Assembly (NCBI GenBank): GCA_963845535.1
Contig: CAWJSK010000019.1
Coordinates: 443,358 to 507,357 of the forward strand
Source: an uncultured Spirochaetota bacterium
GTDB taxonomy: Bacteria; Spirochaetota; Spirochaetia; SZUA-6; Fen-1364
Direction of reading: 5' to 3'
Length of the DNA stretch: 64,000 nucleotides
Shown here: one piece after another, positions 38,149 through 58,510 of the stretch
How the letters are laid out: each line of letters starts with the position of its first letter
Numbering within the stretch: position 1 is the stretch's first letter
The notes under the pieces: model-generated
Database searches by the model: none
What the model was told of the DNA's origin: nothing
The model's input: the letters and a program-made list of their open reading frames with translations, nothing else
Position numbers and translations under genes: made by a program

Positions 38149-39825
38149 TCATCCGCGCGTCGTAGTGGAGCTGATTTCTGCGTCGATAAGATAAGGCCCC
38201 CCGCTTGCAAATCCGCGCTGAAGCGCTGCACCGACATCGGTCGCTTTGATCACATGCTCGCCCGGCACGCCGAGAGAACGGGCCAGTGCAACGTGATCGA
38301 TGGGCGGTCGATCGAGATCCATTCCAACAAAGGTGTCATCGCACGCGGAGAAGCCCTTGAGTGAGAGCACGCGCTGTTTCAGAATGCGATAGCATGCGTT
38401 GTTGAAGATGACAAAAACAACCGCAATTGACTCCCGCGCAGCGGTCCAGAGAGCCTGGATTGTGTACATCGCGCTGCCATCACCGAGGAGAGCCACCACC
38501 GGACGACCCGGAAGCGCCAGTTTAATCCCCATCGCCGCAGGAAGGCCCCAGCCGATACCCCCGCCCCTCATCCCGAAGAGTGCCTTCGAGTCGGCGCATG
38601 GAAAAAACCAACGGATGCCTTCTACGGAGGAGAGGACTTCCTCGACAACCGTTGCGTCTCGCGGGACGTTCGCCGCGATCGCCTGAACGAGAGTAAGAGG
38701 CGAAATCGGGGTGTGCGCAGAATCCTTTGCCGCGCGATCGTTCAGTTCCTTCAGAACGCGCTCGTGCGCGGCGCCGGCCGCTGCCCTTCTTCGGGCCGCC
38801 TCCGCATGGCCATCCGGGGTCGTGTGTCGGCGAAATGCCTCTGTGAGCTCCGGCAGAGTTGCCTTTGGGTCCCCCTGAAGGGCGACGGCCGCGGGATAGT
38901 TCTTGCCCAGCTCCCATGGGTCCTGGTCGAGATGGACAACCGTGAGCCCCTGAGGCAAAGGGTCAATCTCATCGGGCAAAGAGAGGGTGAAGAGATCCGC
39001 GCCAACCGAAAAAAGCAGATCGTGGCGACTGAGAAGCGTCCGAATCTGGGGGGCAAGTCGGGACATGGACCCAGCATACTGCGGGTGAGTGAAAGGGAAT
39101 GCACACGTCGAGGCCATGCACTCGTTGATCACCGGGCAGCCGACAAGCTCCGCGAGCTCCACAAGCTCGACGAGCGAATCACTGAGGGCAACAGCGTCTC
39201 CTGCCACAATGAGTGGGCGCTCGGCGTTGGCCAAAAGACGCGCCGCCTGATCAATGGCCGAGCGATCTGCGACTGTCCCCGAAGCGATCCTCGTGGGACA
39301 TAAGAGATCGAAGTCGCGTTCGGCGTTCAGCACGTCGACTGGGAGGGAAAGGAAGACTGGTCCTCTCGGATGAGAAAGAGCCGTTTTTGTTGCGCGACGC
39401 AACAGGCGCGGAAGGTCCTCCGCCCTGCGGACTTCTGCGGACCATTTCACGAAAGGCGCCGCCATGGGAGGAAGATCGGCCCACACAACAGGCTCGGTGG
39501 CGGTGAAGGACTGGTCGTGTTGGCCCGCTGTCAGGAGAAGGGGAGCTCCTGACTTCTGAGCGTTGTAGAGCATACCGAGAGCGTTGCCGAGTCCCGGAGC
39601 GATATGTACATTCGCGACCGCGAGGTCACCGCTCGCTGTGGCGAACCCGTCCGCCATTGCCACGGCCACTGACTCGTGGAGAGCCAGCACGTAGCGGATG
39701 GCCGGCTCACGGACAAGAGCGTCCATGAGCGGCAGTTCCGTCGTGCCAGGGTTGCCGAAAATGAATCCGACCCCTTCCTGTTTGAGAATCTCGAGGAAAG
39801 CCTGCTTCCCGGTCATCTGAGCCAT
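38149..39825 (-). CDS. ThDP-dependent decarboxylase, benzoylformate decarboxylase-like
   Basis: FGNPGTTELP, HE..AV.MADG, H.APGLGN, GDGSAMY...NNACY. Confidence 0.9.
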   Translation of the reverse strand: MAQMTGKQAFLEILKQEGVGFIFGNPGTTELPLMDALVREPAIRYVLALHESVAVAMADGFATASGDLAVANVHIAPGLGNALGMLYNAQKSGAPLLLTAGQHDQSFTATEPVVWADLPPMAAPFVKWSAEVRRAEDLPRLLRRATKTALSHPRGPVFLSLPVDVLNAERDFDLLCPTRIASGTVADRSAIDQAARLLANAERPLIVAGDAVALSDSLVELVELAELVGCPVINECMASTCAFPFTHPQYAGSMSRLAPQIRTLLSRHDLLFSVGADLFTLSLPDEIDPLPQGLTVVHLDQDPWELGKNYPAAVALQGDPKATLPELTEAFRRHTTPDGHAEAARRRAAAGAAHERVLKELNDRAAKDSAHTPISPLTLVQAIAANVPRDATVVEEVLSSVEGIRWFFPCADSKALFGMRGGGIGWGLPAAMGIKLALPGRPVVALLGDGSAMYTIQALWTAARESIAVVFVIFNNACYRILKQRVLSLKGFSACDDTFVGMDLDRPPIDHVALARSLGVPGEHVIKATDVGAALQRGFASGGPYLIDAEISSTTTRG

Positions 39826-39930
39826 GATCAGCTATCATATGCCCGATGCCAAGAACACGCCACTCAAACGTGAAAAACCCCGATCCGCGATGAAGGGCTC
39901 CACGATGCTGAATACGTTTATATTATCGCC

Positions 39931-40167
39931 ATGGCCAATGGACGCATTAAAATCCGCCTGCATGCCTCCCTGCGGAAATGGGAACCGATTCCAGCCGTCA
40001 GCTGCGAGATAATGGGAGAGAAAACGGTTCGAAGTTTCCTTCTGGATGCCGGTATACCGGAACACGAGGCAGTCATTATAATCGTCAATGGCAGACGCGC
40101 CAGGCTTGAGACGAAACTATCGGATGGCGACACGCTTAGCCTGTTCCCTCTTATTGGAGGCGGCTGA
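39931..40167 (+). CDS. MoaD/ThiS-family ubiquitin-like protein
   Basis: 78 aa; IIVNG, LSDGD.LSLFP, C-terminal IGGG. Confidence 0.85.
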   Translation: MANGRIKIRLHASLRKWEPIPAVSCEIMGEKTVRSFLLDAGIPEHEAVIIIVNGRRARLETKLSDGDTLSLFPLIGGG

Positions 40168-40185
40168 GACCAGCCGAGGTGGAAA

Positions 40186-41316
40186 ATGCAGGTTCCTTTT
40201 GATGCGGCCAAACTAGACCGTTTGATGGAAGATGCAGACCTGTCTCTGGTGCTTGCGAGCAGCCGTCACAATGTGAGGTATCTGACCGGCGGGTATTACT
40301 ACCACTTCCACGCGAACTCGACGCGAATGGGGAGGAGCCGATATCTCCCCTTTGTGGGAGTCCCCGCGAAACGCATACCGGACTCGTTTTACGTCGCTCG
40401 GGCGGAGGAACGTGGCCAGCTGGAATCCGAAGGGCTGTGGGTCCCTACTGTCGTGGAAGCGATTCGAGGGACCGTGACGGCCGCCAAGGGCGTCATGACA
40501 ATGATACGCCGTCTCGGCTTGACGTCGTCGCGAATGGGCGTCGAGTTTCCGTTCCTCCCCGCCGACGCGTTTATTGCGTTGCGGCAGGAGCTTCCTGAAG
40601 CTGTGTTCGTGGATGCGACGCCGATCTTTGATGAGCTCAGGGCCGTGAAGAATGAAAGGGAGGTGTCGATTCTGAGAAACGTCTACGCCGGGGTCGCTGA
40701 ATCCATTCAAGCTGCATTCCGTGGCAGCCATGCAGGAGAGTCTACTCTTCAGATTGCCCAGCGCGTCGAACGAGAGATGGCCGCGAGGGCAATCTCATTC
40801 CTGTTCTCCTTCGTGTGTGCCGGTCCGGGATTCTTGAGGGCGCCGTCTTCCACGAAATGGGAAAACGGGCAGGTGCTCCACATTGACGCAGGTGGAAATC
40901 AGCAGGACTATATTGCAGATATTTGCAGGATGGGGTGCGTCGGCGAACCGTCTGCTCTTGCCAAAGAATTGCATCAAGCCTGCATTGAAGTGATAGATCA
41001 CGTGAGAAGCGTCGTTCGGCCAGGAGTGGCCTGCCGCAATGTCTTAGAAACGGGAGAGGCGGCCTCACGGCGCTACCGATTTTCCTCTTACGCACGTTTC
41101 GTCGTGCATTCAATCGGCATGGTTCCCTACGAGCAACCTGCGTTCTCTCATGAGACCACGCGGACCTTGGAGAAGGGAATGGTATTGTCGATTGAAACGG
41201 ATTTTCTTCACCCCCAAGCAGGTCACGTAAAAATCGAAGATGCCGTTGTCGTCACTGAAACGGGCTGCGAAGGCCTTGGCGACCTTGGAAGAGAATGGCA
41301 GATAGTCGCTGTCTGA
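40186..41316 (+). CDS. M24 (pita-bread fold) peptidase/amidohydrolase
   Basis: NVRYLTG, LRAVK, IDAGG, ADICR, HSIG, SIET, KIED. Confidence 0.88.
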   Translation: MQVPFDAAKLDRLMEDADLSLVLASSRHNVRYLTGGYYYHFHANSTRMGRSRYLPFVGVPAKRIPDSFYVARAEERGQLESEGLWVPTVVEAIRGTVTAAKGVMTMIRRLGLTSSRMGVEFPFLPADAFIALRQELPEAVFVDATPIFDELRAVKNEREVSILRNVYAGVAESIQAAFRGSHAGESTLQIAQRVEREMAARAISFLFSFVCAGPGFLRAPSSTKWENGQVLHIDAGGNQQDYIADICRMGCVGEPSALAKELHQACIEVIDHVRSVVRPGVACRNVLETGEAASRRYRFSSYARFVVHSIGMVPYEQPAFSHETTRTLEKGMVLSIETDFLHPQAGHVKIEDAVVVTETGCEGLGDLGREWQIVAV

Positions 41317-41360
41317 TCGGGCTAGAATAAATCCATAAATCCGCTACGAAAAAATTCTGA

Positions 41361-41413
41361 TTGACATGACATGGGATTACGTTGTAATATCGCAAATATA
41401 TCAGTGATATATT
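41361..41413 (+). promoter_or_regulatory. Sigma70-like promoter with a downstream palindromic operator for the GntR operon
   Basis: TTGACA (41361) - 18 nt - TAATAT; perfect palindrome AATATATCA-G-TGATATATT at 41395-41413. Confidence 0.65.
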
Positions 41414-41478
41414 GCACGTATGTAGCGGAACCTGATGGAAGCTGCGTCATGGCAACGCGAAAGGAAGGGCGAGGAGAA

Positions 41479-42165
41479 ATGGTCAGGACGAAACGCGCCG
41501 CAAGAGAGTTGGTGACGAACAAGAAGAACAGGGTCTACGAAATCCTCAGGGACAGGATCGTCAACAATGTGCTCAAGCCCCAGGAGTTTCTGAATGAGCA
41601 AGCCCTCAGTGAGGACCTCGAGGTCAGCAAGACACCTATCCGGGAGGCTTTGCAGCAACTGGAGCACAGTCGACTGGTCGTAATCATCCCCAATAAGGGC
41701 TGCTACGTTGCCAATATCAGCATAGACAGGATTCGGGAGATCTTCGAGATCAGGACAATTCTTGAATGCGCAGCGGCCAGGCTCGCCGCCTCACTGCCAA
41801 ACCGTGAAAGCTTCCTCGCGTTCTCGGAAAGCAATAACTCCGCAGATTCCAGGGATGGCGAGGAGCTGCGTCGGAGGCTCATCTCAGGATACCAGATCCA
41901 CACAAAAATCGTGGAAGCAGTCGGGAACAGCTACCTGACTGACTACTATCGGACCATCCTGGACAACATCGTCCAGATCCGCGTCTATTTCCTCAGCAGG
42001 TTCGGGCCGAAGCGACTCCATGAGACCATAGATGAGCACAAGAAGATCCTGCGGGCAATCGCGGCCGGGGATGCCAATGGCGCGGAGAATGCCATGCGGG
42101 AGCATTTGAATGCCGCGCTGAAGAACATCAACCGGCTCATGCTCGGAAGCAGGGAGGAACTATGA
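41479..42165 (+). CDS. GntR/FCD family transcriptional regulator
   Basis: VSKTPIREAL wHTH; R..LE; H..I....GN; EH..I..AI; MREHL. Confidence 0.92.
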   Translation: MVRTKRAARELVTNKKNRVYEILRDRIVNNVLKPQEFLNEQALSEDLEVSKTPIREALQQLEHSRLVVIIPNKGCYVANISIDRIREIFEIRTILECAAARLAASLPNRESFLAFSESNNSADSRDGEELRRRLISGYQIHTKIVEAVGNSYLTDYYRTILDNIVQIRVYFLSRFGPKRLHETIDEHKKILRAIAAGDANGAENAMREHLNAALKNINRLMLGSREEL

Positions 42166-42842
42166 TTCACGTTTGCAAGGAGACCCGGAGGGTAGACGCT
42201 GCTCTCGTCGAGAAGTTCCGGGCCTTGGACGTGGCAACCGTTTACGAAGCTTCCGGAAGAAAGGGCTTCATTGACAACACAATCAAGCCGGCCGCACGGG
42301 GCACCCGGGTCTGCGGCCCGGCGTTTACGGTGCAATGCGCTCCTGGTGACAATCTCATGCTTCACAAGGCCCTCCAATGCGCGACCGCCGGAGATGCCCT
42401 CGTTGCCAGCGTCGGGGCACAGCCGGACTTCGGTTATTGGGGCGCGTTGATGGCAACCGCGGCAGTGGCAAAGGGACTGGCGGGATTGGCAATCGACGGG
42501 TGCATCAGGGACTCCGCAGAGATCATCAAGATGGGGTTCCCGGTCTTCTGCCGCGGCTTCTGCATCAAGGGGACCACGAAATCCGTGCTCGGGCTCATCA
42601 ACTATCCTCTGAACTTCGGGCAAATCACCATCTTCCCCGGTGACCTGATTCTTGGGGATGACGACGGGATGGTGGTCGTTCGCTTCGAAGAATGCGAGGA
42701 CGTACTGCAAAAGTCCCTGAAAAGGGTCGAGCTCGAAGACACCAAGGCCAAGCAACTCAAAAAAGGCGTGTCCAGCGTAGAGCTGAACAGCCTGGATAAG
42801 GTGTTCGAGTCCCTCGGCATGATGGAAGAGGGCCGGCAGTGA
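42162..42842 (+). CDS. RraA family / 4-hydroxy-4-methyl-2-oxoglutarate (HMG/CHA) aldolase
   Basis: VATVYEA, CGPAFTV, GDNLMLH, YWGALM, DGCIRD, PGDLILGDDDG. Confidence 0.88.
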   Translation: MIHVCKETRRVDAALVEKFRALDVATVYEASGRKGFIDNTIKPAARGTRVCGPAFTVQCAPGDNLMLHKALQCATAGDALVASVGAQPDFGYWGALMATAAVAKGLAGLAIDGCIRDSAEIIKMGFPVFCRGFCIKGTTKSVLGLINYPLNFGQITIFPGDLILGDDDGMVVVRFEECEDVLQKSLKRVELEDTKAKQLKKGVSSVELNSLDKVFESLGMMEEGRQ

Positions 42843-43909
42843 GGATTGCCCAGAGCGCCCTGCTTGCCGCGGCCAAGGAGATTCTCGTCCTGCTGGGGGA
42901 GGAAACGGAAAGCGCGCGCGTTGCCTCGGAAGCTCTCGTGACGGCTGACATGCGCGGAATCAGCACGCATGGGGTCAACCTCTTGCGCATGATGTCAGAA
43001 CGGGTCTCGGCCAGGATGCTGGCCATGCCGACGCGCGTCGACGTCATCGCAGATGACGCGACAACCGCCGTTCTGGACGGAAACAACGGCCTCGGGCAGG
43101 TGGCAGCCCACCGCGGGTTGCGTCTGAGCGTGGAGAAGGCCAGGCGCAGCGGCCTTGGAATGGTTTGCTTGCGCAATACCAACAACATAGGCGCTCTGGG
43201 CTATTTCACGTCCTTGGCCGCTGATCGTGACGGCGTTGCATCAATCGTCATGACGAACGGGAACCCTTCGGTTGCGCCCTATGGCAGCGCGGAGCCCTTT
43301 TTTGGCACAAACCCGCTCTCCATCGGCGTCCCCGCCCTTCCAGGCCGCCCGCTTGTCCTTGATATGTCATCCAGCGTCGTCGCGCGCGGCAAGATCCGGC
43401 TGGCTTCCCTGAGCGGTGAGAGCATCCCGTCGGGCTGGGCCCTTGACGATACCGGAGCGCCCACCTGTGATCCAGCGCTTGCCCTGAAGGGTTGCCTGTT
43501 GCCTCTGGGCGGCCCCAAAGGCTCGGGTCTGGCCATGATGATCGACATTTTCTCGGGAATGATCTCTGGCTCGGCCTATGGAAGGGGATTGAAAAGCTTT
43601 CACGGGCTGGACGGCGCCACGGGCGTCGGGGCCTGCTTTATCAGCATTGATATCGAAAGGTTCGTGGGTTCCGAATCCTTCGCCGCGAAAATGGCGGAGT
43701 ACATCCAGGAGATCAAAGGACTCCGAAAGCAGGAGGGCGTAGCGGAGATCCTGCTGCCGGGCGAGGTCGAGTGGAAAAAGCAGGAGGAAAGCCGTCGCGC
43801 TGGAATCGAGATTCCGGATTCCGTGGCAAAAGGCCTGGACCAGGTGCTGGCCAGGCTTGGCAGCCGCCTGAGCCTCATTTCCGCGCCTGAGAAGGAACTG
43901 CGGGAATGA
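42839..43909 (+). CDS. Ldh_2 family (malate/L-sulfolactate/ureidoglycolate-type) oxidoreductase
   Basis: DMRGISTHG, DGNNGLG, GTNPLSIG, LDMSSS, GGPKGSGL, LPGE. Confidence 0.9.
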   Translation: MRIAQSALLAAAKEILVLLGEETESARVASEALVTADMRGISTHGVNLLRMMSERVSARMLAMPTRVDVIADDATTAVLDGNNGLGQVAAHRGLRLSVEKARRSGLGMVCLRNTNNIGALGYFTSLAADRDGVASIVMTNGNPSVAPYGSAEPFFGTNPLSIGVPALPGRPLVLDMSSSVVARGKIRLASLSGESIPSGWALDDTGAPTCDPALALKGCLLPLGGPKGSGLAMMIDIFSGMISGSAYGRGLKSFHGLDGATGVGACFISIDIERFVGSESFAAKMAEYIQEIKGLRKQEGVAEILLPGEVEWKKQEESRRAGIEIPDSVAKGLDQVLARLGSRLSLISAPEKELRE

Positions 43910-45639
43910 AGTCCATAATCCGCGTTGACACGCGCGCGCGGCGGATAGTCGCCACGGAAGCCTCCCGTGAAGAGCTGCACTGGGGAGGTCGGTCTCTGAT
44001 TGCACACTTCCTTCTTCGGGAGGTGCCGCCGGCGTGCGAGCCCACCGGAAGGAGAAACAAGCTCATTTTTGCCTCAGGGCTCCTTGCGGACACCGGCGTT
44101 ACCACCGCCGGACAGCTGTCAATCGGCGGGAAGAGCCCGCTCACCGGCGGCGTGAAGGAGAGCAACGTCGGCGGCTACGCCGGGAGAAGGCTTGCCCGAC
44201 TGGGCATACGAGCGCTGATCCTGGAGGACACGCCGCTGAGTCCGACGACGGATGTCCTGGTCATTACAGCCAAGGGAGCGCGCCTGGAGCCGGCCCCGGA
44301 CCTGGCAGGCAAGCTGGTGGATGAGACAGTCGCCGCTCTGCGCGCGAAATACGGAAGCAGCGTTGGCATTTTCTGCACTGGTCCCGCTGGTGAGATGGTC
44401 ATGTATGGGGCCGGGATCGCGTGTCCTGACAACAATGACGTCCAGATCCGATATGCCGCGCGGGGCGGGCTGGGCGCGCTCATGGGGTCCAAGGGAATCA
44501 AGGCCATCGTCCTTGACGACTCGGAAACCACCTATGCAGCCGAGCCCTTCGACAAGGACCTTCTGCAGCAGACCGGAAAGTGGATGTCGGAAGCTTTGCT
44601 CCAGGATCCCAAGACGGAAAACCGGCACCTGTACGGAACGCCCGCCATCCTGGCGCTGGCCAACGCCTCAGGTCTGCTGCCCACGCGCAACTTCTCAAGC
44701 GGAGAGTTCGAGCGGGCGGACGCGATTGCCGGTGAACGGGTGCGGGACGAGATCCTGGCGCGCGGCGGAGAAGGGCAGGCCGGCACGCCCTGCGTTGCCG
44801 GCTGCGTGATCCGCTGCAGCAACGTGTTTCCCGACAAGAGCGGAAAGAAAATCGTTGCCTCTATCCAGTATGAGAACATCTCCCTTCTGGGTTCCAACTG
44901 TGGAATCGGAAGCCTGGACGACATTGCGGAGATGAACCGTCTCTGCAACCAGGTCGGGGTGGACGCCATCGAAACCGGCGCCGCAATCGGCGTGGCCATG
45001 GAAGCGGGTGTCATCGAATTCGGAGACGCGGAAGGCGCAAAAGATCTGATCCGCCAGATCGGCCGGGGTACGTACCTGGGCCGCATCCTGGGGCATGGGG
45101 CCCAGTTGACGGGAAGGGTTCTGGGCGTGCGCAGGATTCCCGTCATCAAAGGCCAGGCCATTCCCGGGTACGACCCCCGGGCGCTCAAGGGGAATGGCGT
45201 CACCTATGTCACGTCACCCATGGGAGCGGACCACACTGCCGGGAACGCGTTCGAGACCTTGAAGACCCTGGACCCTTTGAAGCCGGAGGGGCAGATCGCG
45301 GCCTCCCGGAAGCTGCAGATACGGGCCGCCCTCCTGGACACCCTTGGGCTCTGCCTGTTCGTGAGACCGCCCTTCCTGAAAAAGCCCGAGATGTTTGCCG
45401 CGCTGCTGAAGGGAAGATACGGGTGGGAAATGACGGTGCGCGACGTCGTGGGGTTGGCCTATGACGTGATCACGACGGAGCGGGAGTTTAACAGGCGGGC
45501 GGGGGCTTCCGACGAGTTCCACCCCATCCCCGAGTTCATGCAGGACGAGCCCCTGCCGCCTACGAATTCCGTCTTCGACGTGCCGGACGCCGAAATGCGG
45601 GCCATGTGGGACGGCTACGAACCCGCTGACCAGCTTTGA
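43906..45639 (+). CDS. Aldehyde:ferredoxin oxidoreductase (W/Mo-bis-pterin)
   Basis: KSPLTGGVKESN.GG, GPAGE, AARGGLGA.MGSKG.KA, CVAGCVIRC, YE, DAIETG, YDPR, GADH, GLC. Confidence 0.92.
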   Translation: MKSIIRVDTRARRIVATEASREELHWGGRSLIAHFLLREVPPACEPTGRRNKLIFASGLLADTGVTTAGQLSIGGKSPLTGGVKESNVGGYAGRRLARLGIRALILEDTPLSPTTDVLVITAKGARLEPAPDLAGKLVDETVAALRAKYGSSVGIFCTGPAGEMVMYGAGIACPDNNDVQIRYAARGGLGALMGSKGIKAIVLDDSETTYAAEPFDKDLLQQTGKWMSEALLQDPKTENRHLYGTPAILALANASGLLPTRNFSSGEFERADAIAGERVRDEILARGGEGQAGTPCVAGCVIRCSNVFPDKSGKKIVASIQYENISLLGSNCGIGSLDDIAEMNRLCNQVGVDAIETGAAIGVAMEAGVIEFGDAEGAKDLIRQIGRGTYLGRILGHGAQLTGRVLGVRRIPVIKGQAIPGYDPRALKGNGVTYVTSPMGADHTAGNAFETLKTLDPLKPEGQIAASRKLQIRAALLDTLGLCLFVRPPFLKKPEMFAALLKGRYGWEMTVRDVVGLAYDVITTEREFNRRAGASDEFHPIPEFMQDEPLPPTNSVFDVPDAEMRAMWDGYEPADQL

Positions 45640-45657
45640 AAGGGAGGAGCGAACGGC

Positions 45658-50469: not shown

Positions 50470-51173
50470 TGGTGGTTGAGTCCCTCCACACGTACTACGG
50501 GAACATCCACGCAGTCAAGGGAATCTCTTTCGAGGTGCAGAAGGGCCAGATTACCGCCATCATCGGGGCCAACGGTGCCGGCAAGTCGACGTCCATGAAG
50601 ACCATCTGCGGTCTGCTTCACCCGCGCAACGGAAGAATCCTCCTTCATGATTCGCCCATTCACAGGCTGCGCCCGGATCAGATTGTGCGTTTGGGGATTG
50701 GATACGTTCCCGAGGGAAGGCGGGTCTTCCCGGTATTGACCGTGGATGAAAACCTCGACATGGGCGCCTACCATCGCTCTGATGCATCCGAGGTCGCCAG
50801 GGACAAGGAACGGATGTATGAGACCTTTCCCAAGCTCAAGGACCGCAGAAAGCAACTCGCCGGGTCATTGAGCGGCGGAGAGCAACAGATGCTGGTGATA
50901 GCTCGCGCCTTGATGTCCAAGCCTCAGCTACTGCTGATGGATGAGCCTTCCCTGGGTCTGGCGCCCCTCCTGGTCCGGCAGGTATTCGACATCATCGTGG
51001 AGCTGAACAGGAAGGGTTTGACCATCCTTCTGAGCGAGCAAAACGCGCGCGGCGCTTTGAAGATCGCGCATCGGGGGATCGTGATGGAGACGGGCAAAGT
51101 CCGATTTGCCGGCGCGGCACAGGCCCTGCAAGAGAACCCCGTGGTTCAGCGGGCGTACTTGGGCGTCGGATGA
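50466..51173 (+). CDS. LivF-like ABC ATPase
   Basis: GANGAGKST, VPEGRRVF, LSGGEQQM, DEPSLGLAP, EQNA. Confidence 0.93.
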   Translation: MMVVESLHTYYGNIHAVKGISFEVQKGQITAIIGANGAGKSTSMKTICGLLHPRNGRILLHDSPIHRLRPDQIVRLGIGYVPEGRRVFPVLTVDENLDMGAYHRSDASEVARDKERMYETFPKLKDRRKQLAGSLSGGEQQMLVIARALMSKPQLLLMDEPSLGLAPLLVRQVFDIIVELNRKGLTILLSEQNARGALKIAHRGIVMETGKVRFAGAAQALQENPVVQRAYLGVG

Positions 51174-51258
51174 GTCCGTCGGCCGCGAAAGGAGGTGCTC
51201 GGGGTGAGGAAGCTGTCGGGGACGTGTTGCGTCGTGGAAACATGAAGGGAGGATCATC

Positions 51259-52425
51259 ATGAAGCGAAAAGGACTTGGTATCATTCTGACGATATGTGTC
51301 ATAGCGACGATCGGCATTTCTTTTGCCGCAGCATCAGGCACCAAAGAAGGCGCCGGTGGCGCCGCCAACCCCGCTGCTGAGGCGCAGCCAATCAAAATAG
51401 CGATCATCGGTGCCATGAGTGGCACCAACGCAATCCTGGGAGACTGGCTGAAAAAGGGCGTGACCCTTGCCATTGAGCAGCAAAACGCCAAAGGCGGCAT
51501 CCAGGGCCGCCAGATTCAGCTCGTCATCTACGACGATCAGGCCAACCCCACAACGTCTGTCGGCTTGGCCCAGAAGGTCGCCACCGAAGACAAGGTCATG
51601 GCGGCGTGGGCCACAACGAACAGCAATTCAACGCTGGCGGATCTTCCGATTTTCCAGAGCTACAAGATACCGCAGCTCACGTTTGGGACGAACGTCAACA
51701 TCACGCAGCAGGGCAGCGCGTACATTTTCCGACAGTGCCCTGCCGGCCCCGCGTATGAGGATCCGCTGATCGACTATCTGGTGAAGGCAGGCAAGACGAA
51801 GTATGCCATCATCGGCGACAACTCTGCGTATGGCAAGGGAGAAACGGACTATCAGACCGCGGCCCTCAAGCGCAATAACCTGACGCCGCTGGATGCCGAG
51901 GCATACGGGATTGACGACAAGGACTTCACGGGCCAGCTTACCAAGATACTCCAGACCCAGCCCGAGGTCCTCCTGCTGGCCTCTTCCGAGGTAGCCGGTG
52001 GACTGGTGGCCAGGCAGGCGCGGCAGCTCGGCTTCACCGGGATCATCGCGGGCGGCTCCGCCATGGCCACGCCCAAGTTTACCGAGACCGCGGGGGATGC
52101 GGCCGAGGGCGTCTACTTCACATCACCGTACCCGGGCAACGCCGCGAACGAGCGCACACGCGCGTTCGCCGCAGCGTACAAGGCGCGGTGGGGGGAAGAC
52201 GCGGAAGAGCATGGGGCCAACAGCTATGACGGTGCCAGCATGCTGTTGCTGGCAATGTCGAGGGCCAACCCTTTGACTTCTGAAAACGTTGCCGCGGAGA
52301 TGCACAAGATCTCCGGCTACCAAGGCCTGCAAGGTGTCTTCAACTATGATGCAACCGGCGAAGGGATTCGGTTGACGAACGTCGGCATCATCAAGAACGG
52401 CAAGCACGCATTCCTGACAAAATAG
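51259..52425 (+). CDS. LivK/LivJ-like (PBP1) ABC substrate-binding protein
   Basis: Signal peptide; IKIAII..MSG, GGIQGRQI....DD, YG, DFTGQLTKI. Confidence 0.9.
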   Translation: MKRKGLGIILTICVIATIGISFAAASGTKEGAGGAANPAAEAQPIKIAIIGAMSGTNAILGDWLKKGVTLAIEQQNAKGGIQGRQIQLVIYDDQANPTTSVGLAQKVATEDKVMAAWATTNSNSTLADLPIFQSYKIPQLTFGTNVNITQQGSAYIFRQCPAGPAYEDPLIDYLVKAGKTKYAIIGDNSAYGKGETDYQTAALKRNNLTPLDAEAYGIDDKDFTGQLTKILQTQPEVLLLASSEVAGGLVARQARQLGFTGIIAGGSAMATPKFTETAGDAAEGVYFTSPYPGNAANERTRAFAAAYKARWGEDAEEHGANSYDGASMLLLAMSRANPLTSENVAAEMHKISGYQGLQGVFNYDATGEGIRLTNVGIIKNGKHAFLTK

Positions 52426-52485
52426 AAAGGCATGTGCACGCTCGGAGACGACTCATCGTCTCCGAGCGTGCCAGGGGAGACTGAC

Positions 52486-53517
52486 ATGAAGGCTATCGTG
52501 AAATATGAGGACGCGGCAGGCGCGGTCAAGGTGATGGATCGACCGAAGCCTCAGGTCGGCGCCAACGACGTCCTCATCGGGATCAAGGCAACCGGGATCT
52601 GCTACTCCGACATGTCCATCGTGAAGGGCGAATACAAGGGAAGAAAACCCGTACCGATTCCCGTCATTCTTGGGCACGAGGCGTCGGGGGTCGTTTCCGC
52701 GGTTGGAAAGAACGTGCGGAGCGTTGCCCCGGGAGACCGGGTGGCGTTCGAGCCCCTGAATGGCTGCGGGCAGTGCGAAAACTGCAAGAAGGGTTTCAAG
52801 AACATGTGCACGGACTGGAGCCATGTCGGCATCACGTGCGACGGGACGTTTGCCGAGTTTGTTGCGGTTCCCGAGATCCTGGTGCACGAGCTTGGCCCTT
52901 CCATATCATTCGCCGACGCAGCAGTGCTGGAGCCGTTGAGCCTCGTGGCTCGCTCCCTGGAGCACGTCGTACCGGTGGCCGGGGAATCCGCCGTGATCAT
53001 CGGACCGGGCTCCGTTGGTTTGCTCCATCTTCAGGCGCTGAAATCATCCGGGGTGGAAAAAATAGTCGTTATTGGAATTGACAAGGATGCAAAGAGGTTC
53101 GAGATCGCCGAATCCCTGGGAGCCAGCCGCGTGGTTTCGCTGCAAAAGGAAGATCCAATCAAGGCGGTCATGGAGGCAACCGGCGGTCATGGCGCAGATA
53201 TCGTCATTGAGACAGCCAACCATCCCTCCGTGTGGGACATCATCCTGGACGTTGTTGCGGCGCGGGGGCGCATTTCCACCTTTGGCCTGTATCCGGAAGC
53301 CAAGATCAAACCGATAGCTTTGCTGAGAAAAGGCGCAACCATCTACGGTGATGTGGCCCTGCTGCCCAAGCACTTCATGCGCGCCATAAGCTGGCTGGAG
53401 ACGAAAAAAGTTTCTGGCGAAAAGCTCATCACAAAACGCTTTGCCCTGGACCAGGTAGATGAGGCTTTCACGACTTTCTATGGCGGCCAGACCATCAAGG
53501 TCCTCTTTGAAGTCTGA
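52486..53517 (+). CDS. Zinc-dependent (medium-chain) alcohol/polyol dehydrogenase
   Basis: GICYSD, LGHE, CGQCENC..G..NMC, EP, GPGSVG. Confidence 0.92.
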   Translation: MKAIVKYEDAAGAVKVMDRPKPQVGANDVLIGIKATGICYSDMSIVKGEYKGRKPVPIPVILGHEASGVVSAVGKNVRSVAPGDRVAFEPLNGCGQCENCKKGFKNMCTDWSHVGITCDGTFAEFVAVPEILVHELGPSISFADAAVLEPLSLVARSLEHVVPVAGESAVIIGPGSVGLLHLQALKSSGVEKIVVIGIDKDAKRFEIAESLGASRVVSLQKEDPIKAVMEATGGHGADIVIETANHPSVWDIILDVVAARGRISTFGLYPEAKIKPIALLRKGATIYGDVALLPKHFMRAISWLETKKVSGEKLITKRFALDQVDEAFTTFYGGQTIKVLFEV

Positions 53518-53565
53518 CGACGCTTCAGTGCGGCGCGTGCGCATGCGGAAAGGGGTGGTTCTACC

Positions 53566-54936
53566 GTGAAGAAGATACGGTCCGTGAATCCGTTCACAAT
53601 GGAGGTGAACGGGGAGTTCGAGCTCGAATCACCGGCAAAGGTCCGTGAGGAGATAGAAAGGTCACGGGAGGCGTTCAAAGCCTGGAGGGTGAGCGCCGCC
53701 GAGCGCGGGAAACATATTGCCCGATTGGCCGATGTCCTCCTTGCCGGAAAACGCGGCTACGCCGAAACAATCACGCGGGAAATGGGCAAGCCAATCAGGC
53801 AATCCCTCACGGAGATAGAGCGAAGCGCCAATATCTGCAAATATTTCGGAGAGCATGCAGAAGAGCTTACTCGTGACGAAGTTGTAGAGACGGCGTTTGC
53901 AAAGAGCTACGTCACTTTCGAGCCCCTCGGTGTAATCCTTGCCATAATGCCGTGGAATTTCCCGGTCATCCAGCTTTTCCGGTTTGCCATTCCCACCATG
54001 TCGGCCGGCAATGTCGTTGTCTTGAAACCTGCTTCCATCACGCCGTTGTGCGGGAAGGCCATCGAGAGCATTTTCACGGACGCCGGGTTTCCGAAAGGAG
54101 TCTTCAGGACTCTCCTGATGGATTCCGCCACTGCGCTGGACCTCGTCAAAGATGACATGGTGGACGGCGTCTCCCTGACGGGGAGCCTTGGAGCGGGCAC
54201 GCAGGTGGGGGCGGCTGCGGGCGGCCGGATCAAGAAAAACGTGCTGGAGCTCGGCGGGTCGGATCCGTTCCTGGTCCTTGATGACGTTGACGTGGATGCG
54301 GTTGCCTCCCAAGCGGTCCAGTCGCGTTTCGTCAATTGCGGCCAGAGCTGTGTCGCTTCCAAGCGCTTCGTTGTCATGAAGAAGATCGCGCAGGAGTTCA
54401 CCGACCGCTTCGTCCACTACATGCAGGCCATGAAGGCGGGCAATCCGATGGACGAGTCGACGGACATCGGCCCCCTTGCAACGGAAGAAGCGGCGTATGA
54501 GCTCTCACGGCAGATCGCAGACGCAAAGCAGAAAGGCGCCACGGTGGTAGAAGGTCCACCCATTCCGTCACAGGGGATGTTCTTTCGGCCGGTTGCCATC
54601 CTCAATGCCAAAAAAAACATGCTCGTGGCTCAAGAGGAAACCTTTGGCCCCATCGCTCCGATCTTCGTCGTCAAGGATGAGGAGGAGATGATCGAACTTG
54701 CGAACTCCACGGAGTTTGGCCTCGGAGCGACCATCTGGAGCAAGGACATCGAGAAAGCCCAAGCGCTGGCCCGTAGGATCGAATCTGGGTTCGTCGGCAT
54801 CAACAAGCCGGTGAAATCAGATCCGCGCCTGCCCTTCGGGGGAACCAAGAAATCCGGCGTGGGGCGTGAGCTCTCACACTACGGAGTCCGGGAGTTCACC
54901 AACGTGAAGACCATCATCGTGGAGAACCCGGGCTGA
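53566..54936 (+). CDS. NAD(P)-dependent aldehyde dehydrogenase (succinate-semialdehyde DH/Sad-like)
   Basis: MPWNFP, LKPAS, LTGS, LELGGSDP, GQSC, EETFGP, PFGG.K.SG.GRE. Confidence 0.93.
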   Translation: MKKIRSVNPFTMEVNGEFELESPAKVREEIERSREAFKAWRVSAAERGKHIARLADVLLAGKRGYAETITREMGKPIRQSLTEIERSANICKYFGEHAEELTRDEVVETAFAKSYVTFEPLGVILAIMPWNFPVIQLFRFAIPTMSAGNVVVLKPASITPLCGKAIESIFTDAGFPKGVFRTLLMDSATALDLVKDDMVDGVSLTGSLGAGTQVGAAAGGRIKKNVLELGGSDPFLVLDDVDVDAVASQAVQSRFVNCGQSCVASKRFVVMKKIAQEFTDRFVHYMQAMKAGNPMDESTDIGPLATEEAAYELSRQIADAKQKGATVVEGPPIPSQGMFFRPVAILNAKKNMLVAQEETFGPIAPIFVVKDEEEMIELANSTEFGLGATIWSKDIEKAQALARRIESGFVGINKPVKSDPRLPFGGTKKSGVGRELSHYGVREFTNVKTIIVENPG

Positions 54937-54963
54937 GCGGAAGCGCGCTTCGAGGTGAGGGGA

Positions 54964-56785
54964 ATGAGGAATATCGCACTGCTGGGCAAGCTGCTGGGAG
55001 GATTCGCCGTCGTCGCCTTTCTCGTCCTGGCGGTCGGATATGTGGGGCTGAGGGGCGCTCGCAGCATGACGGGCACCGTCAATGACGTCGGGACCAACCA
55101 CCTGCGGGCAGTACAGAGCCTCCTGCTGGCAGCGGAAGCGCAGTCCCAGGTCAATGCCGCGGAGAACATTCTCATGGAAAAGGGCCTGGACGCCGGAAGC
55201 GTGCAGAGCAACTTCACGGCGTTCGACAAGGCCAGAAAAGTCATTGACGACTCATTCGCAGTCTACGAGTCTCTCCCCAAGTCGAAGGAAGGACTGGACC
55301 GCTGGAATCAGCTCAAGGTCGTGTTCGAATCGTGGTGGAAGACGCACCTGGACTTCGCCCGCATTGCCCAGGCGTATTGGAACAATCCCTCTGATGCTGC
55401 ATACACCGACATGAAAAACCAGATTCCGCAGAACAGCTCAGACGTACGCCCCTTCCAGCGGGCTCCTGCATGGTCTTGTGGAGACAAACATCCAGGAGGC
55501 GGACGCCGCGGTGGCCAGAAGCCGGGCAACCGGCTTTCGAGTGGAGGTGACCTCTCTTACCGGCATGTGCGCGGGGGTCATCCTGGCCTTGCTGGAGGGG
55601 GTCCTTCTTTCCCTGTCAATTGCGCGACCGCTTGCCAGGGCAGTGGCGTTCGCGAAAATCGTCTCCGGAGGAGACTTCACCCAGAAGCTGGATATCACTG
55701 GCAAAGATGAGGTGGGGGTCCTGGCCGACGCTCTGAATGCCATGGCGAAAAAGCTCAGCGGTGTGGTCGACTCCATCCAGCAGAGCGCGGAAGAGGTGGC
55801 TTCCTCCAGCGAAGAGATCAGCGCCACCGCGCTGAACCTGTCGGAAGGCGCGCAGAATCAAGCATCGACAATAGAACAGACCAGCGCCTCCATGGAGGAG
55901 CTTTCTGCGTCCGTGGCCCAGGTGGCGGAGAATGCACAGTCGCAGGCAAGCGCCGCCCAGCGGGGCGAGAGCTCCATGGCGAAGGTGGACAGGTTCATCC
56001 AGGACGTCGCCCGGGGCCTCCAGGAGATAGCCGGCCTGGCCGGGCAGTCAGTGGAAAAGGCGGAGAACGGGGCCCGGTCCGTCCAAAAGGTAGTGGACGG
56101 AATCGGGACGATCGCAGAGAGCTCGGAGAAGATCAGGGGAATTGTCGCGGTGATATCCGACATCGCGGACCAGACGAACCTCCTGGCGCTGAACGCGTCC
56201 ATCGAGGCAGCGCGGGCCGGGGAGCACGGCCGTGGGTTTGCCGTGGTTGCTGACGAGGTGAGCAAGCTGGCGGACCGAAGCTCCGCATCAACCAAGGAAA
56301 TCGGGGCCTTGATCAGCAAGAGCGTGGAAAACGTGAGCGACGGGGTGGAAATTGCCCAGGGCTCGAAGGAGGCCATGGAAGGGATTCGCGCGTCGTCCCA
56401 GAGGGTCAAGGAAATGATCGCAGGACTCTCCGAGTCTATCTCCCAGCAGGTGATGACCGTGGAGGACCTTTCGAAATCCCTGGGTGGGGTCAGTGACATG
56501 AGCCGTGGCATCTCCTCGGCAACGGAAGAGCAGACGACGAATGCCAAGCAGATTTCCGCGGCAATGGAAACCGTCAACGAGCTCACGCAGGTTGCCGCCT
56601 CAGCCGCCGAGGAGCTGTCCGGTTCCACGGAGCAGCTGACCACCATGGCGCAGAGCCTGCACAGGACCGTTGCGCAGTTCAAGATCGACAAGGGAAATGG
56701 CGCGGCCGGCGGGCAGGGCCGCCAGGCCCTGACGGATGGGGCGGCAGGCAGGAAGCCGCTTACACAGGAGGCGAGTTTGTCGTAG
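54964..56785 (+). pseudogene. Methyl-accepting chemotaxis protein (4HB sensor, HAMP) with a frameshift near 55437 (possibly a sequencing error)
   Basis: TM1 + four-helix sensor in ORF 54955-55710; TM2, HAMP (GDFT...DEVG) and [33 protein letters not shown] in ORF 55478-56785. Confidence 0.85.
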
Positions 56786-56826
56786 ACTGGAGAAAAGATC
56801 TGTCTCAACGTCAGGAGGGATACTCG

Positions 56827-57279
56827 GTGGCCAAGCGCGTAGCGGTAGTCCATGGGCCGAACCTGAATATGCTCGGCAAGCGCGAGGTGGGCATATACGG
56901 TGGCAAGTCAATGGAAGAGATCAACTCCGAGGTGGCTGCCGAGGCAGCATTCCTGGACGTGGCAGTCGAGTTCTACCAGTCGAACAGCGAGGGTGAGCTG
57001 GTCACCTATATCCAGCAGTGCCGGGGAGAAATGGACGGCATCTTGTTGAATGCCGGCGCCTACACCCACTATTCCATCGCTCTTCGGGACGCGGTTGCGG
57101 CCGCGCAGGTCCCAACCGTAGAGGTTCACATCTCGAACATCTACAAGAGAGAGCCTTTTCGCCATGTGTCGGTCCTCGCTCCCGTTTGCATCGGCCAGAT
57201 CTGCGGATTCGGCTCTCATGGATACGTCCTGGCTCTCCGGGCTTTGATGGAAGAGCGATTCGACCCCTGGCTGGCCTGA
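56827..57279 (+). CDS. aroQ: Type II 3-dehydroquinate dehydratase
   Basis: GPNLNMLGKRE..IYG, QSNSEG, NAGAYTHYSIALRDA, VEVHISN...RE.FRH; all catalytic residues present. Confidence 0.95.
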   Translation: MAKRVAVVHGPNLNMLGKREVGIYGGKSMEEINSEVAAEAAFLDVAVEFYQSNSEGELVTYIQQCRGEMDGILLNAGAYTHYSIALRDAVAAAQVPTVEVHISNIYKREPFRHVSVLAPVCIGQICGFGSHGYVLALRALMEERFDPWLA

Positions 57280-57295
57280 GCGCAAGGAGAAGGGT

Positions 57296-57742
57296 GTGAG
57301 GAAGGAAAGGAAATATCTGGTAATATCCGGTCCAAACCTGAACCTGTTGGGAACGCGCAAGACTTCCATCTATGGGGCGGGCTCCCTGGAGGACATCCAC
57401 AGCGGATTGCGCCAGCGCGCGGAAGAGCTCAAGGTGGCCGTTGATTGCAGGCAATTCAACAGCGAAGGCGCCATCATCGACTGCCTTCAGCAGGCGCCCA
57501 GCGAATACGATGGCGTGATCATCAACGCCGGCGCCCTGGCGCATTACAGCTACGCCCTCCGCAGCGCTATCGGCTCGATGCTGCTGCCGTGCGTGGAGGT
57601 ATTCATCTCCAACGTGCATGCGCGCGAAGAGTTCCGCCATAAATCGGTGATAGCGCCCGTGTGCGTGGGGGTCATCGGCGGTTTCGGGAAAAAAAGCTAC
57701 CTGCTGGCCCTGGAAGCCCTGTCCAAACTGAGCAAAGCATAG
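57296..57742 (+). CDS. Type II dehydroquinase paralog with substituted catalytic residues
   Basis: GPNLNLLGTRKTSIYG, NAGALAHYSYALRSA, VEVFISN. Confidence 0.88.
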   Translation: MRKERKYLVISGPNLNLLGTRKTSIYGAGSLEDIHSGLRQRAEELKVAVDCRQFNSEGAIIDCLQQAPSEYDGVIINAGALAHYSYALRSAIGSMLLPCVEVFISNVHAREEFRHKSVIAPVCVGVIGGFGKKSYLLALEALSKLSKA

Positions 57743-57757
57743 AAGGGAGATCCGCGC

Positions 57758-58510
57758 ATGGCCGTTCGCTGGGCAATGATGGTCCAGAGCTTGTCCCGCG
57801 TCACTGAAGCTGAAGGAGCAGGTTTTGATTGCGTGCAACCGACGGTGGGCTTCATCCTGGACCTCCAAAAGCGGAGGATCAAGAACCCCGGCGTGCCTTT
57901 TGAGGTAAGCCCGGTGCCTCTTCCCGCGGACGTCCGCGTGACCGAGAGAGGGTTCAACCTCTACGCATGGATGGAAGATCTGAAAAAATCCCTGCAGGGC
58001 CTTTCGGACCTTGGCTGCAAAAAGCTCGCCTGGAGTGAGGGCAGGGCGCGTCTCCTTCCTCTCGAAGGAGATCGGTCAGGAGCCAAGGAACAGGCCATGC
58101 AGTTTTTGTACATGCTGTGCGATGCAGCCGCCGAGAAGGGAATGACGGTGCTGATTGAACCTCTTGGGCCGCGACGCACAAATTTCCTGAATACGCTGGA
58201 TGAAATCAGGGATTTTCTTCCGCGGGTCGGAAAGGAAAACCTGTCAGCCATGATCAGTCTCCGTGAGCTGGAGGCAACGGGGCTTACCCTGGCATCTCTC
58301 CCCGCGTACAAAGATCTCATAGCGCACGTCCAGATGGAGAACCCTTTGTCTCCTCAAGGCGCGCGGACCTGCCCACGAGCCTCGGATGGATACGACTATC
58401 GCTCTTTCCTTGGAGCGCTCGAAACAATCGGCTACTCCGGCGTCATTACACTTCCGGAAGATTCAGATATCTTGGGATTATCTTATTGCAAGGAAATGTG
58501 GAAAACGTAG
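57758..58510 (+). CDS. Xylose-isomerase-like TIM barrel (sugar phosphate isomerase/epimerase family), divergent
   Basis: GFDCVQ, VLIEPL...TNFLNT, IAHVQ, GYSGVITL. Confidence 0.75.
   Translation: MAVRWAMMVQSLSRVTEAEGAGFDCVQPTVGFILDLQKRRIKNPGVPFEVSPVPLPADVRVTERGFNLYAWMEDLKKSLQGLSDLGCKKLAWSEGRARLLPLEGDRSGAKEQAMQFLYMLCDAAAEKGMTVLIEPLGPRRTNFLNTLDEIRDFLPRVGKENLSAMISLRELEATGLTLASLPAYKDLIAHVQMENPLSPQGARTCPRASDGYDYRSFLGALETIGYSGVITLPEDSDILGLSYCKEMWKT

Follow-up and report, generated by a model that had tools for sequence, protein, structure and literature searches.

We describe a gene cluster in an uncultured Spirochaetota bacterium that stands an even chance, in our judgement, of being an operon with which an anaerobic spirochaete breaks down a carboxylated cyclitol, with quinate or 3-dehydroquinate as the substrate and hydrolytic opening of the ring. 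The cluster occupies positions 38149-58510 of the window, by which we mean the whole stretch of 64,000 nucleotides analyzed (contig C19, CAWJSK010000019.1, positions 443358-507357) from a metagenome-assembled genome (MAG) of 4.55 Mb in 23 contigs. In terms of enzyme families, it is about equally balanced whether the cluster encodes hydroaromatic-acid catabolism that opens the ring with an IolN-type hydrolase and ends in RraA-type aldol cleavage; the exact assignment of enzymes to steps is less certain than this overall reading. That related operons form a widespread anaerobic pathway, in at least five phyla and with a shorter variant in gut Lachnospiraceae, which mineralizes quinate and dehydroquinate without an aromatic intermediate and oxidizes the opened chain by ferredoxin- and NAD-linked steps, is a more tentative proposal to which we give slightly less than even weight.

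Gene families were assigned from a listing of open reading frames (ORFs) and Pfam and NCBIfam profile scans of positions 38149-58510. The first-pass annotation of this DNA had listed a run from gntR to a gene for a TIM barrel protein, with a moaD-like gene, an M24 hydrolase and a thiamine diphosphate (ThDP)-dependent enzyme upstream; the scans recovered every one of these genes in that order. They also bore out its remark that a ring-cleaving dioxygenase, a CoA ligase and the IolG, IolE and IolD families are missing, as none of these had a match among the scanned ORFs of this region. The best matches of all cluster proteins were in MAGs of Treponemataceae or Spirochaetes, so that the host is probably a spirochaete of this kind. 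GntR and RraA, RraA and Ldh_2, and Ldh_2 and the aldehyde:ferredoxin oxidoreductase (AOR) gene each overlap by 4 bases, which points to one transcription unit, and later gaps up to livH measure 9-35 bases.

The neighborhood analysis of IolN homologues that the first-pass annotation had proposed gave a positive result. We aligned 20 IolN homologues, scanned one genome per prokaryote species with them and took the best 80 of 167 relatives, each with up to 10 kb of flank on either side (1.29 Mb in total; loci are numbered with the prefix L). Presence of each gene was counted by tblastn with the window proteins (E ≤ 1e-10, coverage > 0.6) and not by ORF clusters, because our crude ORF caller gave antisense artefacts (clusters c16, c18 and c21). 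RraA and Ldh_2 homologues were each found in 53 of the 80 loci, AOR in 54, the cupin in 65, the zinc-dependent alcohol dehydrogenase (Zn-ADH) in 62, the short-chain dehydrogenase/reductase (SDR) in 39, GntR in 36 and the TIM barrel in 33; SDR, Zn-ADH, GntR and the ABC transporter ATPase are large families, and low-identity matches in these counts are not necessarily orthologues. RraA, Ldh_2, AOR, cupin and Zn-ADH make up with IolN a single conserved operon, which is present in Spirochaetota, Bacillota, Chloroflexota, Thermodesulfobacteriota and Methylomirabilota. Its cultured carriers include Fervidicola ferrireducens Y170, Thermovorax subterraneus DSM 21563 and Desulfacinum infernum DSM 9756. 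The arrangement is far beyond chance; most of the 80 loci, all from other genomes, have this core.

Gene maps showed a recurring order of GntR, RraA, Ldh_2 and AOR, then SDR, a GFO/IDH/MocA gene or a second Zn-ADH, followed by the cupin, IolN, a transporter, Zn-ADH and sometimes the TIM barrel. The GntR homologue lies upstream of RraA in 36 of the 80 loci, and the cupin adjoins IolN in every one of its 65 loci. The window Zn-ADH is 47-59% identical to the IolN-adjacent Zn-ADH of many loci. Among the 34 RraA-type loci with full flanks, 30 carry a complete set consisting of RraA, Ldh_2, AOR or aldehyde dehydrogenase (ALDH), cupin, IolN and at least two dehydrogenases, with a transporter also present in 27 of these 30. 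The dehydrogenases come in two flavors, SDR with one Zn-ADH or two Zn-ADHs with a TIM barrel, and loci that lack SDR mostly have the second Zn-ADH and the TIM barrel. The minimal conserved set is therefore two dehydrogenases, IolN, cupin, AOR or ALDH, Ldh_2 and RraA. ALDH relatives occur in just 4 of the 80 loci; ALDH occupies the AOR slot in L042 and L058, and L004 has ALDH and no AOR. This non-orthologous displacement argues that AOR oxidizes an aldehyde in the pathway. In the window genome, where AOR is present, ALDH is accessory. The trait is sparsely distributed in the host phylum: an IolN above the model cut-off was found in 4 of 301 sampled Spirochaetota genomes, the host's own included, and this patchiness suggests an accessory, mobile trait.

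Close relatives of the window IolN carry public names that point elsewhere, namely "3-dehydro-scyllo-inosose hydrolase" or "creatinine amidohydrolase". Its similarity to creatininases of the PDB is clear (E values of 7e-13 to 3e-6), and the E, H, D, H and E residues of its STENHG, GEDT and HGQE motifs, which we take to be the metal ligands, are invariant across 20 sequences. A search of 1.84 billion representatives yielded few full-length IolN relatives with less than 60% identity. They include P0121 (53%) as well as P0126 and P0132 (39-43%, with an N-terminal extension), and all of them pass the IolN model. P0121-like proteins served as a control in the form of 80 metagenome loci (0.71 Mb) that encode proteins 49-59% identical to the window IolN. 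Across these sister-subfamily loci, RraA, Ldh_2, AOR, cupin, SDR, aroQ and aroD all numbered 0, whereas DctP was found in 1, DctM in 3, an IolG-like gene in 21, an IolO-like gene in 32 and Zn-ADH in 59, a contrast weakened just slightly by the shorter average length of the metagenome loci. A spirochaete locus (L086:392-3458) places an extended-type IolN of 303 bits beside IolG (474 bits against a cut-off of 355) and IolO (349 bits against 300), which is the canonical setting of an inositol pathway, and RraA, Ldh_2, AOR, cupin and dehydroquinases are absent from it. Between the window subfamily and the sister subfamily, compared over the 78 of 80 and 79 of 80 sequences that passed a length and stop filter, we counted 18 fixed differences, clustered at residues 154-161 and 219-240 and including a Gly-His-Cys ... 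Gly-Ile-Glu-Cys loop. The clean contrast indicates that the window IolN belongs to a subfamily of its own, linked to a carboxylated substrate related to dehydroquinate; for this subfamily, the public inositol and creatinine names are probably wrong.

The NCBIfam IolN model itself spans at least three branches, and neighbors of the IolG, IolO and IolM type occur only with the two more distant ones, the P0121-like (323 aa) and the extended (about 365 aa) proteins. The window branch and P0121 score 522-535 bits and the extended branch 299-346 bits. The Thermotoga maritima protein passes the model, and no Thermotogota were among the 80 closest loci.

The link to hydroaromatic acids comes from the dehydroquinases. 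A type II enzyme (aroQ) was found in 8 of the 80 loci, of which five are spirochaete, one Clostridia, one Methylomirabilota and one deltaproteobacterial, and a type I enzyme in 13 loci and in L033; one type or the other is present in 22 of 80. The first-pass annotation had held it against its scheme if homologous clusters never associated with aroQ, and these counts go the other way. Mapped on the IolN tree (23 rows with a dehydroquinase, the window included, and 25 full-flank rows without one; 31 short loci were left uncounted, and L016 and L078 were omitted from the tree because their high-scoring segment pairs held internal stops), presence and absence required at least 11 state changes. 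The cluster has thus recruited two unrelated kinds of dehydroquinase, and has done so repeatedly, and genes of the shikimate dehydrogenase family lie in L029, L051 and L066. The unit of aroQ1, aroQ2 and TIM barrel is kept in four spirochaete loci (L003:17080-18756, L004:15553-17325, L006:2552-4259 and L007:19031-20718). The two aroQ paralogues are about 50% identical to each other, and the window TIM barrel is 37.6-39.6% identical to its positional counterparts. The two aroQ genes are the only type II copies of the genome, which has a type I gene 266 kb away beside an aroE-like frame. A further dehydroquinase was found elsewhere in 7 of 11 genomes checked, making the cluster copy an extra one.

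Transport genes agree with an acid substrate. Tripartite ATP-independent periplasmic (TRAP) transporters were the most frequent family absent from the window by ORF clustering, and tblastn found DctP in 56, DctQ in 37 and DctM in 53 loci, with DctP or DctM in 58 of 80. As the usual transporter, TRAP indicates a carboxylate substrate. The window instead has a branched-chain amino acid (LIV)-type ATP-binding cassette (ABC) system, 59-74% identical to the cluster-adjacent LIV systems of Chloroflexota loci L053, L065, L069, L071 and L081, and its binding protein is 60-64% identical to the counterparts in L065, L069 and L081. This identity marks it as an importer that belongs to the cluster and takes the place of TRAP there, and not as an amino-acid transporter that happens to lie nearby. 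Compared with the PDB, the binding proteins had no close relative informative on the ligand; the nearest solved TRAP binding proteins form a mixed set among which no quinate binder is named.

The remaining enzymes were compared with known families. The RraA protein scores 198.6 bits with the NF006731 model for the aldolase of 4-carboxy-4-hydroxy-2-oxoadipate (CHA), above the cut-off of 179. Its best PDB match is 3NOJ (152.9 bits), an aldolase of 4-hydroxy-4-methyl-2-oxoglutarate (HMG) and CHA, and its R116-D117 and E192 align to R123-D124 and E199 of 3NOJ, of which we take R123-D124 to be the catalytic Arg-Asp pair. Neither the ORFs of positions 38149-58510 nor the gene clusters that recur in the 80 loci included any gene for protocatechuate 4,5-cleavage or gallate degradation. 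The AOR matches 9mqx (213.9 bits) and 1aor (205.1 bits) in the PDB and has both AFOR domains. Ldh_2 is closest to sulfolactate and malate dehydrogenases among PDB entries. The cupin had no specific NCBIfam match, its ESM Atlas search gave generic cupin clusters only, and its weak PDB matches include sugar and sugar-phosphate isomerases. For the TIM barrel, no PDB sequence match was found at E ≤ 0.01 and no match to the QuiC model at E ≤ 1e-5, thresholds below which a weaker likeness is possible. Its predicted structure (mean predicted local distance difference test score, pLDDT, of 84) gave ketose 3-epimerases as the top Foldseek matches; the matches listed to rank 50 were nearly all of this kind or sugar isomerases related to it, and dehydroshikimate dehydratase appeared in no title among them.

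On these grounds we propose the following scheme. The acid would be taken up by the LIV-type ABC transporter in the window and by TRAP transporters in most relatives, and 3-dehydroshikimate would enter through the two AroQ hydratase/dehydratases. Quinate would be oxidized at the C3 and C5 hydroxyls by the SDR and the Zn-ADH, passing through 3-dehydroquinate to 3,5-didehydroquinate, a cyclic 1,3-diketone, with the SDR as the candidate for the first ring oxidation and the Zn-ADH, IolM-like in role, for the second. The IolN subfamily enzyme would open the ring with water to HOOC-CH2-C(OH)(COOH)-CH2-CO-CH2OH. A ketol isomerase, probably the cupin, would convert the hydroxyacetyl end into a 2-hydroxy-aldehyde, AOR would oxidize the aldehyde with ferredoxin, Ldh_2 would turn the resulting 2-hydroxy acid into CHA, and the RraA-like aldolase would cleave CHA to pyruvate and oxaloacetate. 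By our arithmetic, the balance would be quinate + 2 H2O -> pyruvate + oxaloacetate + 8 [H]. Two of the ring carbons of quinate are CH2 groups from the start, so that no dehydratase would be needed before the aldolase. We infer every chemical step, those on the ring by analogy with the roles that NCBIfam gives to IolM and IolN.

This route from quinate to CHA and on through the aldolase had been suggested in the first-pass annotation. What has held up is the fit with the conserved core, since the seven catalytic functions that the scheme requires are precisely those of the minimal set; the assignment of enzymes to steps and the choice of quinate are as conjectural as they were. The earlier suggestion that the cupin or the TIM barrel is the ketose-aldose isomerase fares unevenly as well, the TIM barrel being ketose-3-epimerase-like and not clearly such an isomerase; our scheme gives it no step.

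Several observations weigh against the scheme. Quinate as the substrate is deduced solely from the neighboring genes, and dehydroquinases are absent from the 25 full-flank loci mentioned above. In four of the genomes checked (G003, G006, G007 and G008), the cluster dehydroquinase was the only one detected and could be the housekeeping gene. The RraA protein falls short of the stricter LigK model TIGR02798 (182.3 bits against 304.5) and has Ala95 where 3NOJ has Asp102. What the cupin and Ldh_2 do is a guess: an alternative for Ldh_2 is the oxaloacetate/malate couple, where it could simply reduce oxaloacetate, and a route to the 2-oxo acid by an alcohol dehydrogenase plus AOR would need neither protein. 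On chemical grounds, 3,5-didehydroquinate might dehydrate and aromatize to gallate. A GFO/IDH/MocA (IolG-like) dehydrogenase, of a family typical of inositol pathways, is present in 11 of the 80 loci. Finally, the MAG is 84.78% complete with 4.21% contamination, and livM, livG and the gene for the methyl-accepting chemotaxis protein (MCP) are frame-broken, so that the local copy of the cluster may not be fully functional.

The same chemistry might act on another carboxylated or deoxy carbocycle, with the dehydroquinases providing a side entry or handling an analogue. We consider this unlikely but deserving of real weight. TRAP transporters and the FCD domain of the GntR regulator say just "organic acid," no quinate binder is named among the solved proteins nearest to the TRAP binding proteins, dehydroquinases occur in only 22 of 80 loci, and two conserved aroQ genes with an epimerase-like TIM barrel hint at something beyond plain interconversion of dehydroquinate and dehydroshikimate. 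Quinate or dehydroquinate, however, would account for the repeated recruitment of both unrelated dehydroquinase types and of shikimate dehydrogenases, and the two ring CH2 groups of quinate would explain the missing dehydratase before the aldolase; to our knowledge, there is no other common natural carboxylated cyclitol. For aminocyclitols or mycosporine- and gadusol-type compounds, which the first-pass annotation had offered as alternatives, nothing in our analysis spoke. The public names suggest a different course, an ordinary Thermotoga-type inositol pathway of IolG, IolM, IolN and IolO. The IolN protein does score more than twice the cut-off of its inositol-pathway model (522 bits against 245 for NF041098), it is accompanied by a Zn-ADH and, at many loci, by a TIM barrel of epimerase-like type, and 11 of the 80 loci have the GFO/IDH/MocA gene. 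We nevertheless find this reading very unlikely, as its partners are not there: the Zn-ADH reaches 204 bits against the IolM cut-off of 450, the TIM barrels 33-48 bits against 300 for IolO, and the window has no IolG. Transport is of the TRAP or LIV type and not the sugar-type ABC system of the Thermotoga operon, Thermotogota are missing from the 80 closest loci, and RraA, Ldh_2, AOR, cupin and dehydroquinases accompany the window subfamily only, with 0 in the 80 sister loci and in L086.

A classical aromatizing route, in which quinate passes through dehydroquinate and dehydroshikimate to protocatechuate, with the TIM barrel as the dehydratase and the LigK-like aldolase at the end of meta-cleavage, would make sense of the conserved unit of two aroQ genes and TIM barrel and of the likeness of RraA to LigK; known dehydroshikimate dehydratases do have the AP_endonuc_2 fold. 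We regard it as scarcely credible all the same. No dioxygenase and no LigI, LigJ or LigU family member was seen in positions 38149-58510, AOR marks an anaerobic setting, and most loci have the core without aroQ or a window-type TIM barrel. The dehydratase role of the TIM barrel, which had no sequence or QuiC match at the thresholds used and whose predicted structure is nearest to ketose 3-epimerases, was rejected as unsupported. Two further readings were set aside for what they leave out. A ureide or purine pathway, suggested by the cupin (25.5 bits to ureidoglycine aminohydrolase) and an AllD-like Ldh_2, leaves AOR, RraA, IolN and the dehydroquinases unexplained, and a uronate pathway of the KdgF/KduD kind fits the cupin, SDR, TRAP and an aldolase while leaving IolN, Zn-ADH and the dehydroquinases unexplained. 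Whatever the pathway does elsewhere, the operon could be decaying in the host genome, its transport and chemotaxis genes having become pseudogenes. Four frame breaks fall in three genes: livM has two, at G7 runs near 48998 and 49113, livG has one near 50247, and in the MCP gene a frameshift somewhere between 55478 and 55710 leaves two overlapping frames. Yet the two livM breaks are homopolymer breaks 115 bases apart that restore the frame, as is typical of long-read assembly error, and all enzyme genes of the cluster are intact. The aroD-aroE region of the same genome (C19:224000-225500) is apparently frame-split too, which makes assembly error plausible. The pattern suggests long-read assembly indels rather than gene decay, and decay seems improbable to us.

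The genes of the preferred reading, a hydroaromatic-acid operon, are listed in Table 1 with the genes upstream of it. The start of IolN was corrected to the position given there, and the probable true start of GntR is near 41449. A promoter-like site that matches at 10 of 12 positions lies at 41361-41390, before GntR.

Table 1. Genes at positions 38149-58510 of the window, with the profile matches on which their assignment is based (scores in bits; "cut-off" is that of the model named)
Feature	Position	Strand	Evidence
ThDP-dependent enzyme, benzoylformate-decarboxylase-like	38149-39825	-	Pfam TPP_enzyme N, M, C; NF005485 407.8, below cut-off 493
MoaD/ThiS-like ORF of 78 aa with Gly-Gly end (weak call)	39931-40167	+	TIGR01687 32.2, below cut-off 49.5
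M24 creatinase/prolidase-like hydrolase	40186-41316	+	PF00557 and PF01321 (Creatinase_N)
GntR regulator with FCD ligand domain	41371-42165	+	PF00392 and PF07729
RraA-like class II aldolase	42162-42842	+	PF03737 146.8; NF006731 198.6, above cut-off 179; TIGR02798 182.3, below cut-off 304.5
Ldh_2-family 2-hydroxyacid dehydrogenase	42839-43909	+	PF02615 351
AOR, aldehyde:ferredoxin oxidoreductase (presumed tungstopterin type)	43906-45639	+	PF02730 171; PF01314 229
SDR dehydrogenase	45658-46404	+	PF13561/PF00106
Small single-domain cupin (Cupin_2)	about 46440-46787	+	PF07883
IolN-family creatininase-fold hydrolase, 321 aa	46802-47767	+	PF02633 154.6; NF041098 522.2, above cut-off 245
livH	47777-48667	+	Pfam
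livM, two frame breaks	48677-49720	+	Pfam; tblastn with intact homologues
livG, one frame break	49704-50469	+	Pfam; tblastn with intact homologues
livF	50466-51173	+	Pfam
Peripla_BP_6 solute-binding protein of ABC transporter	51259-52425	+	PF13458 204; best PDB match 3td9
Zn-ADH	52432-53517	+	PF08240 and PF00107; IolM model 204, below cut-off 450; Tdh 214, below cut-off 458
ALDH, NAD(P)-dependent, succinate-semialdehyde dehydrogenase (SSADH)-like	53566-54936	+	PF00171 452.7
MCP (4HB sensor, HAMP, signalling domain), frame-split	54955-56785	+	Pfam
aroQ paralogue 1, type II dehydroquinase	56827-57279	+	PF01220 195; TIGR01088 203.2, above cut-off 169.85
aroQ paralogue 2, type II dehydroquinase	57296-57742	+	PF01220 177; TIGR01088 181.0, above cut-off 169.85
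AP_endonuc_2 TIM barrel, ketose-3-epimerase-like	57758-58510	+	PF01261

The upstream M24 hydrolase, ThDP enzyme and MoaD-like protein, which the first-pass annotation had listed with the run, are not conserved with the core. By tblastn, aroQ is present in 8 of the 80 loci, M24 in 3, the ThDP enzyme in 1 and the MCP in 1. Relatives of M24 (52-65% identical) lie near the cluster only in L003, L007, L008 and, partially, L013; it is a lineage-specific accessory outside the cross-phylum core. Its positions are L003:15885-16997, L007:2775-3899 and L008:3257-4378, and it accompanies the cluster in spirochaetes only. The ThDP enzyme, which had been considered as an IolD-like ring hydrolase, is on the opposite strand, has benzoylformate decarboxylase as its best model and has its single relative at 25% identity; it was set aside as non-core and is probably outside the system. 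The MoaD-like gene is distinct from a 97-aa ORF on the minus strand.

On both sides of the cluster, the window holds other genes. Upstream (33466-38141), the minus strand encodes a CMD-family protein, an aldo/keto reductase, a Zn-ADH and a partial SDR, and the plus strand a Flavodoxin_4 protein; no member of this separate redox group is conserved with the cluster. Downstream (58562-63466) follows an unrelated sugar locus made up of a GH4 glycosidase, a DUF4432 protein, another M24 hydrolase and a LacI regulator, the last on the minus strand. Extra genes were also seen at some relatives: a PrpR_N/sigma-54 activator downstream of the cluster in L014 (15210-17189, by Pfam), a comparably sized ORF at the corresponding place in L015 (15260-17185), an SMP-30/gluconolactonase-like gene in L076 (15194-16069), and urocanase and amidohydrolase genes upstream in L015, L017 and, judging by ORF size, probably L021. 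These are probably neighboring operons.

Eleven Lachnospiraceae loci (L043, L044, L051, L055-L057, L059, L061, L062, L068 and L080; for example, L062:8957-16981) from gut Faecalicatena, Blautia and Hespellia have the same IolN subfamily in a different setting, for which Faecalicatena orotica DSM 1287 and Hespellia stercorisuis DSM 15480 are cultured representatives. Their order is GntR, an HMG-CoA-lyase-like protein, IolN, two Zn-ADHs, TIM barrel, a 673-aa ene-reductase of the old yellow enzyme (OYE)/BaiCD-like kind, a type I dehydroquinase, a major facilitator superfamily (MFS) transporter and TRAP. RraA, Ldh_2, AOR and cupin are absent from these loci, which form one clade of the IolN tree with a Shimodaira-Hasegawa-like approximate likelihood ratio test (SH-aLRT) value of 100. 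In the gut, this variant might serve as a shorter route for quinate or shikimate.

Two known systems come closest to ours, which works like the Thermotoga inositol pathway in its first half and ends with the step that concludes protocatechuate 4,5-cleavage and gallate degradation. Rodionova et al. reportedly described in 2013 the myo-inositol pathway of Thermotoga maritima with IolG, IolM, IolN and IolO; we use the enzyme names as given by NCBIfam (NF041097, NF041098 and NF041099). As in that pathway, two ring oxidations would here lead to a cyclic 1,3-diketone, whose C-C bond a creatininase-fold enzyme would cleave hydrolytically, and IolN passes the model, has a Zn-ADH partner and is often joined by a ketose-3-epimerase-like TIM barrel. 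The window system differs in its distinct IolN subfamily with the 18 fixed differences, in partners below the IolM and IolO cut-offs, in lacking IolG, in its TRAP or LIV transport, and in having RraA, Ldh_2, AOR and cupin with attached dehydroquinases and no sugar-acid route. The counterpart of the last step is the LigK/GalC/ProA HMG/CHA aldolase of protocatechuate 4,5-cleavage and gallate degradation, represented by 3NOJ. The window protein shares with it the RraA fold, the Arg-Asp pair and the Glu199 equivalent, a pass in NF006731 and, as proposed, the product pair of pyruvate and oxaloacetate; unlike it, the protein fails TIGR02798 and has Ala for Asp102. Whereas LigK and GalC belong to aerobic pathways, no dioxygenase, hydrolase or hydratase of those pathways lies nearby, the hosts are anaerobic, and CHA would arise without an aromatic intermediate.

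Aerobic catabolism of quinate and shikimate proceeds by quinate dehydrogenase, a catabolic dehydroquinase and dehydroshikimate dehydratase and then through protocatechuate. Our loci share with it dehydroquinases extra to the biosynthetic copy and, in some cases, shikimate dehydrogenase genes, but they have no recognizable dehydroshikimate dehydratase or oxygenase, and the ring would be opened hydrolytically before aromatization. Anaerobic degradation of phloroglucinol uses an SDR reductase followed by dihydrophloroglucinol cyclohydrolase, a hydrolase that apparently belongs to another family. The strategy is like the one proposed here, oxygen-free, with a cyclic 1,3-dione made and then cleaved with water; the dione arises there by reduction of an aromatic ring and would arise here by oxidation of a cyclitol acid. 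The proposed system is thus one of known enzyme families and a known ring-opening trick, with a new substrate class and in a new combination. Our literature search covered open-licensed full text in PMC and bioRxiv, with subscription journals outside its scope; within it, we found no description of such a route, no paper pairing IolN with quinate and none that names didehydroquinate, quinate fermentation, anaerobic quinate or anaerobic shikimate.

Few plant acids reach anoxic soils, sediments, digesters and guts in such abundance as quinate and shikimate, whether free or bound as chlorogenic acids. We know of no gene-level pathway for specialists that ferment hydroaromatic compounds. Such specialists exist in culture, Ilyobacter insuetus reportedly among them, and a 2024 study proposed uncharacterized pathways responsive to quinic acid in a coffee-associated gut bacterium. 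If our reading is correct, the operon would offer a testable seven-enzyme route and a gene basis for the anaerobic degradation of hydroaromatic compounds, and a large protein subfamily that is now named as an inositol enzyme would be re-annotated. It would also show how oxygen-free carbon cycling came to combine the CHA aldolase that ends an aerobic lignin pathway with the opening steps of an inositol pathway.

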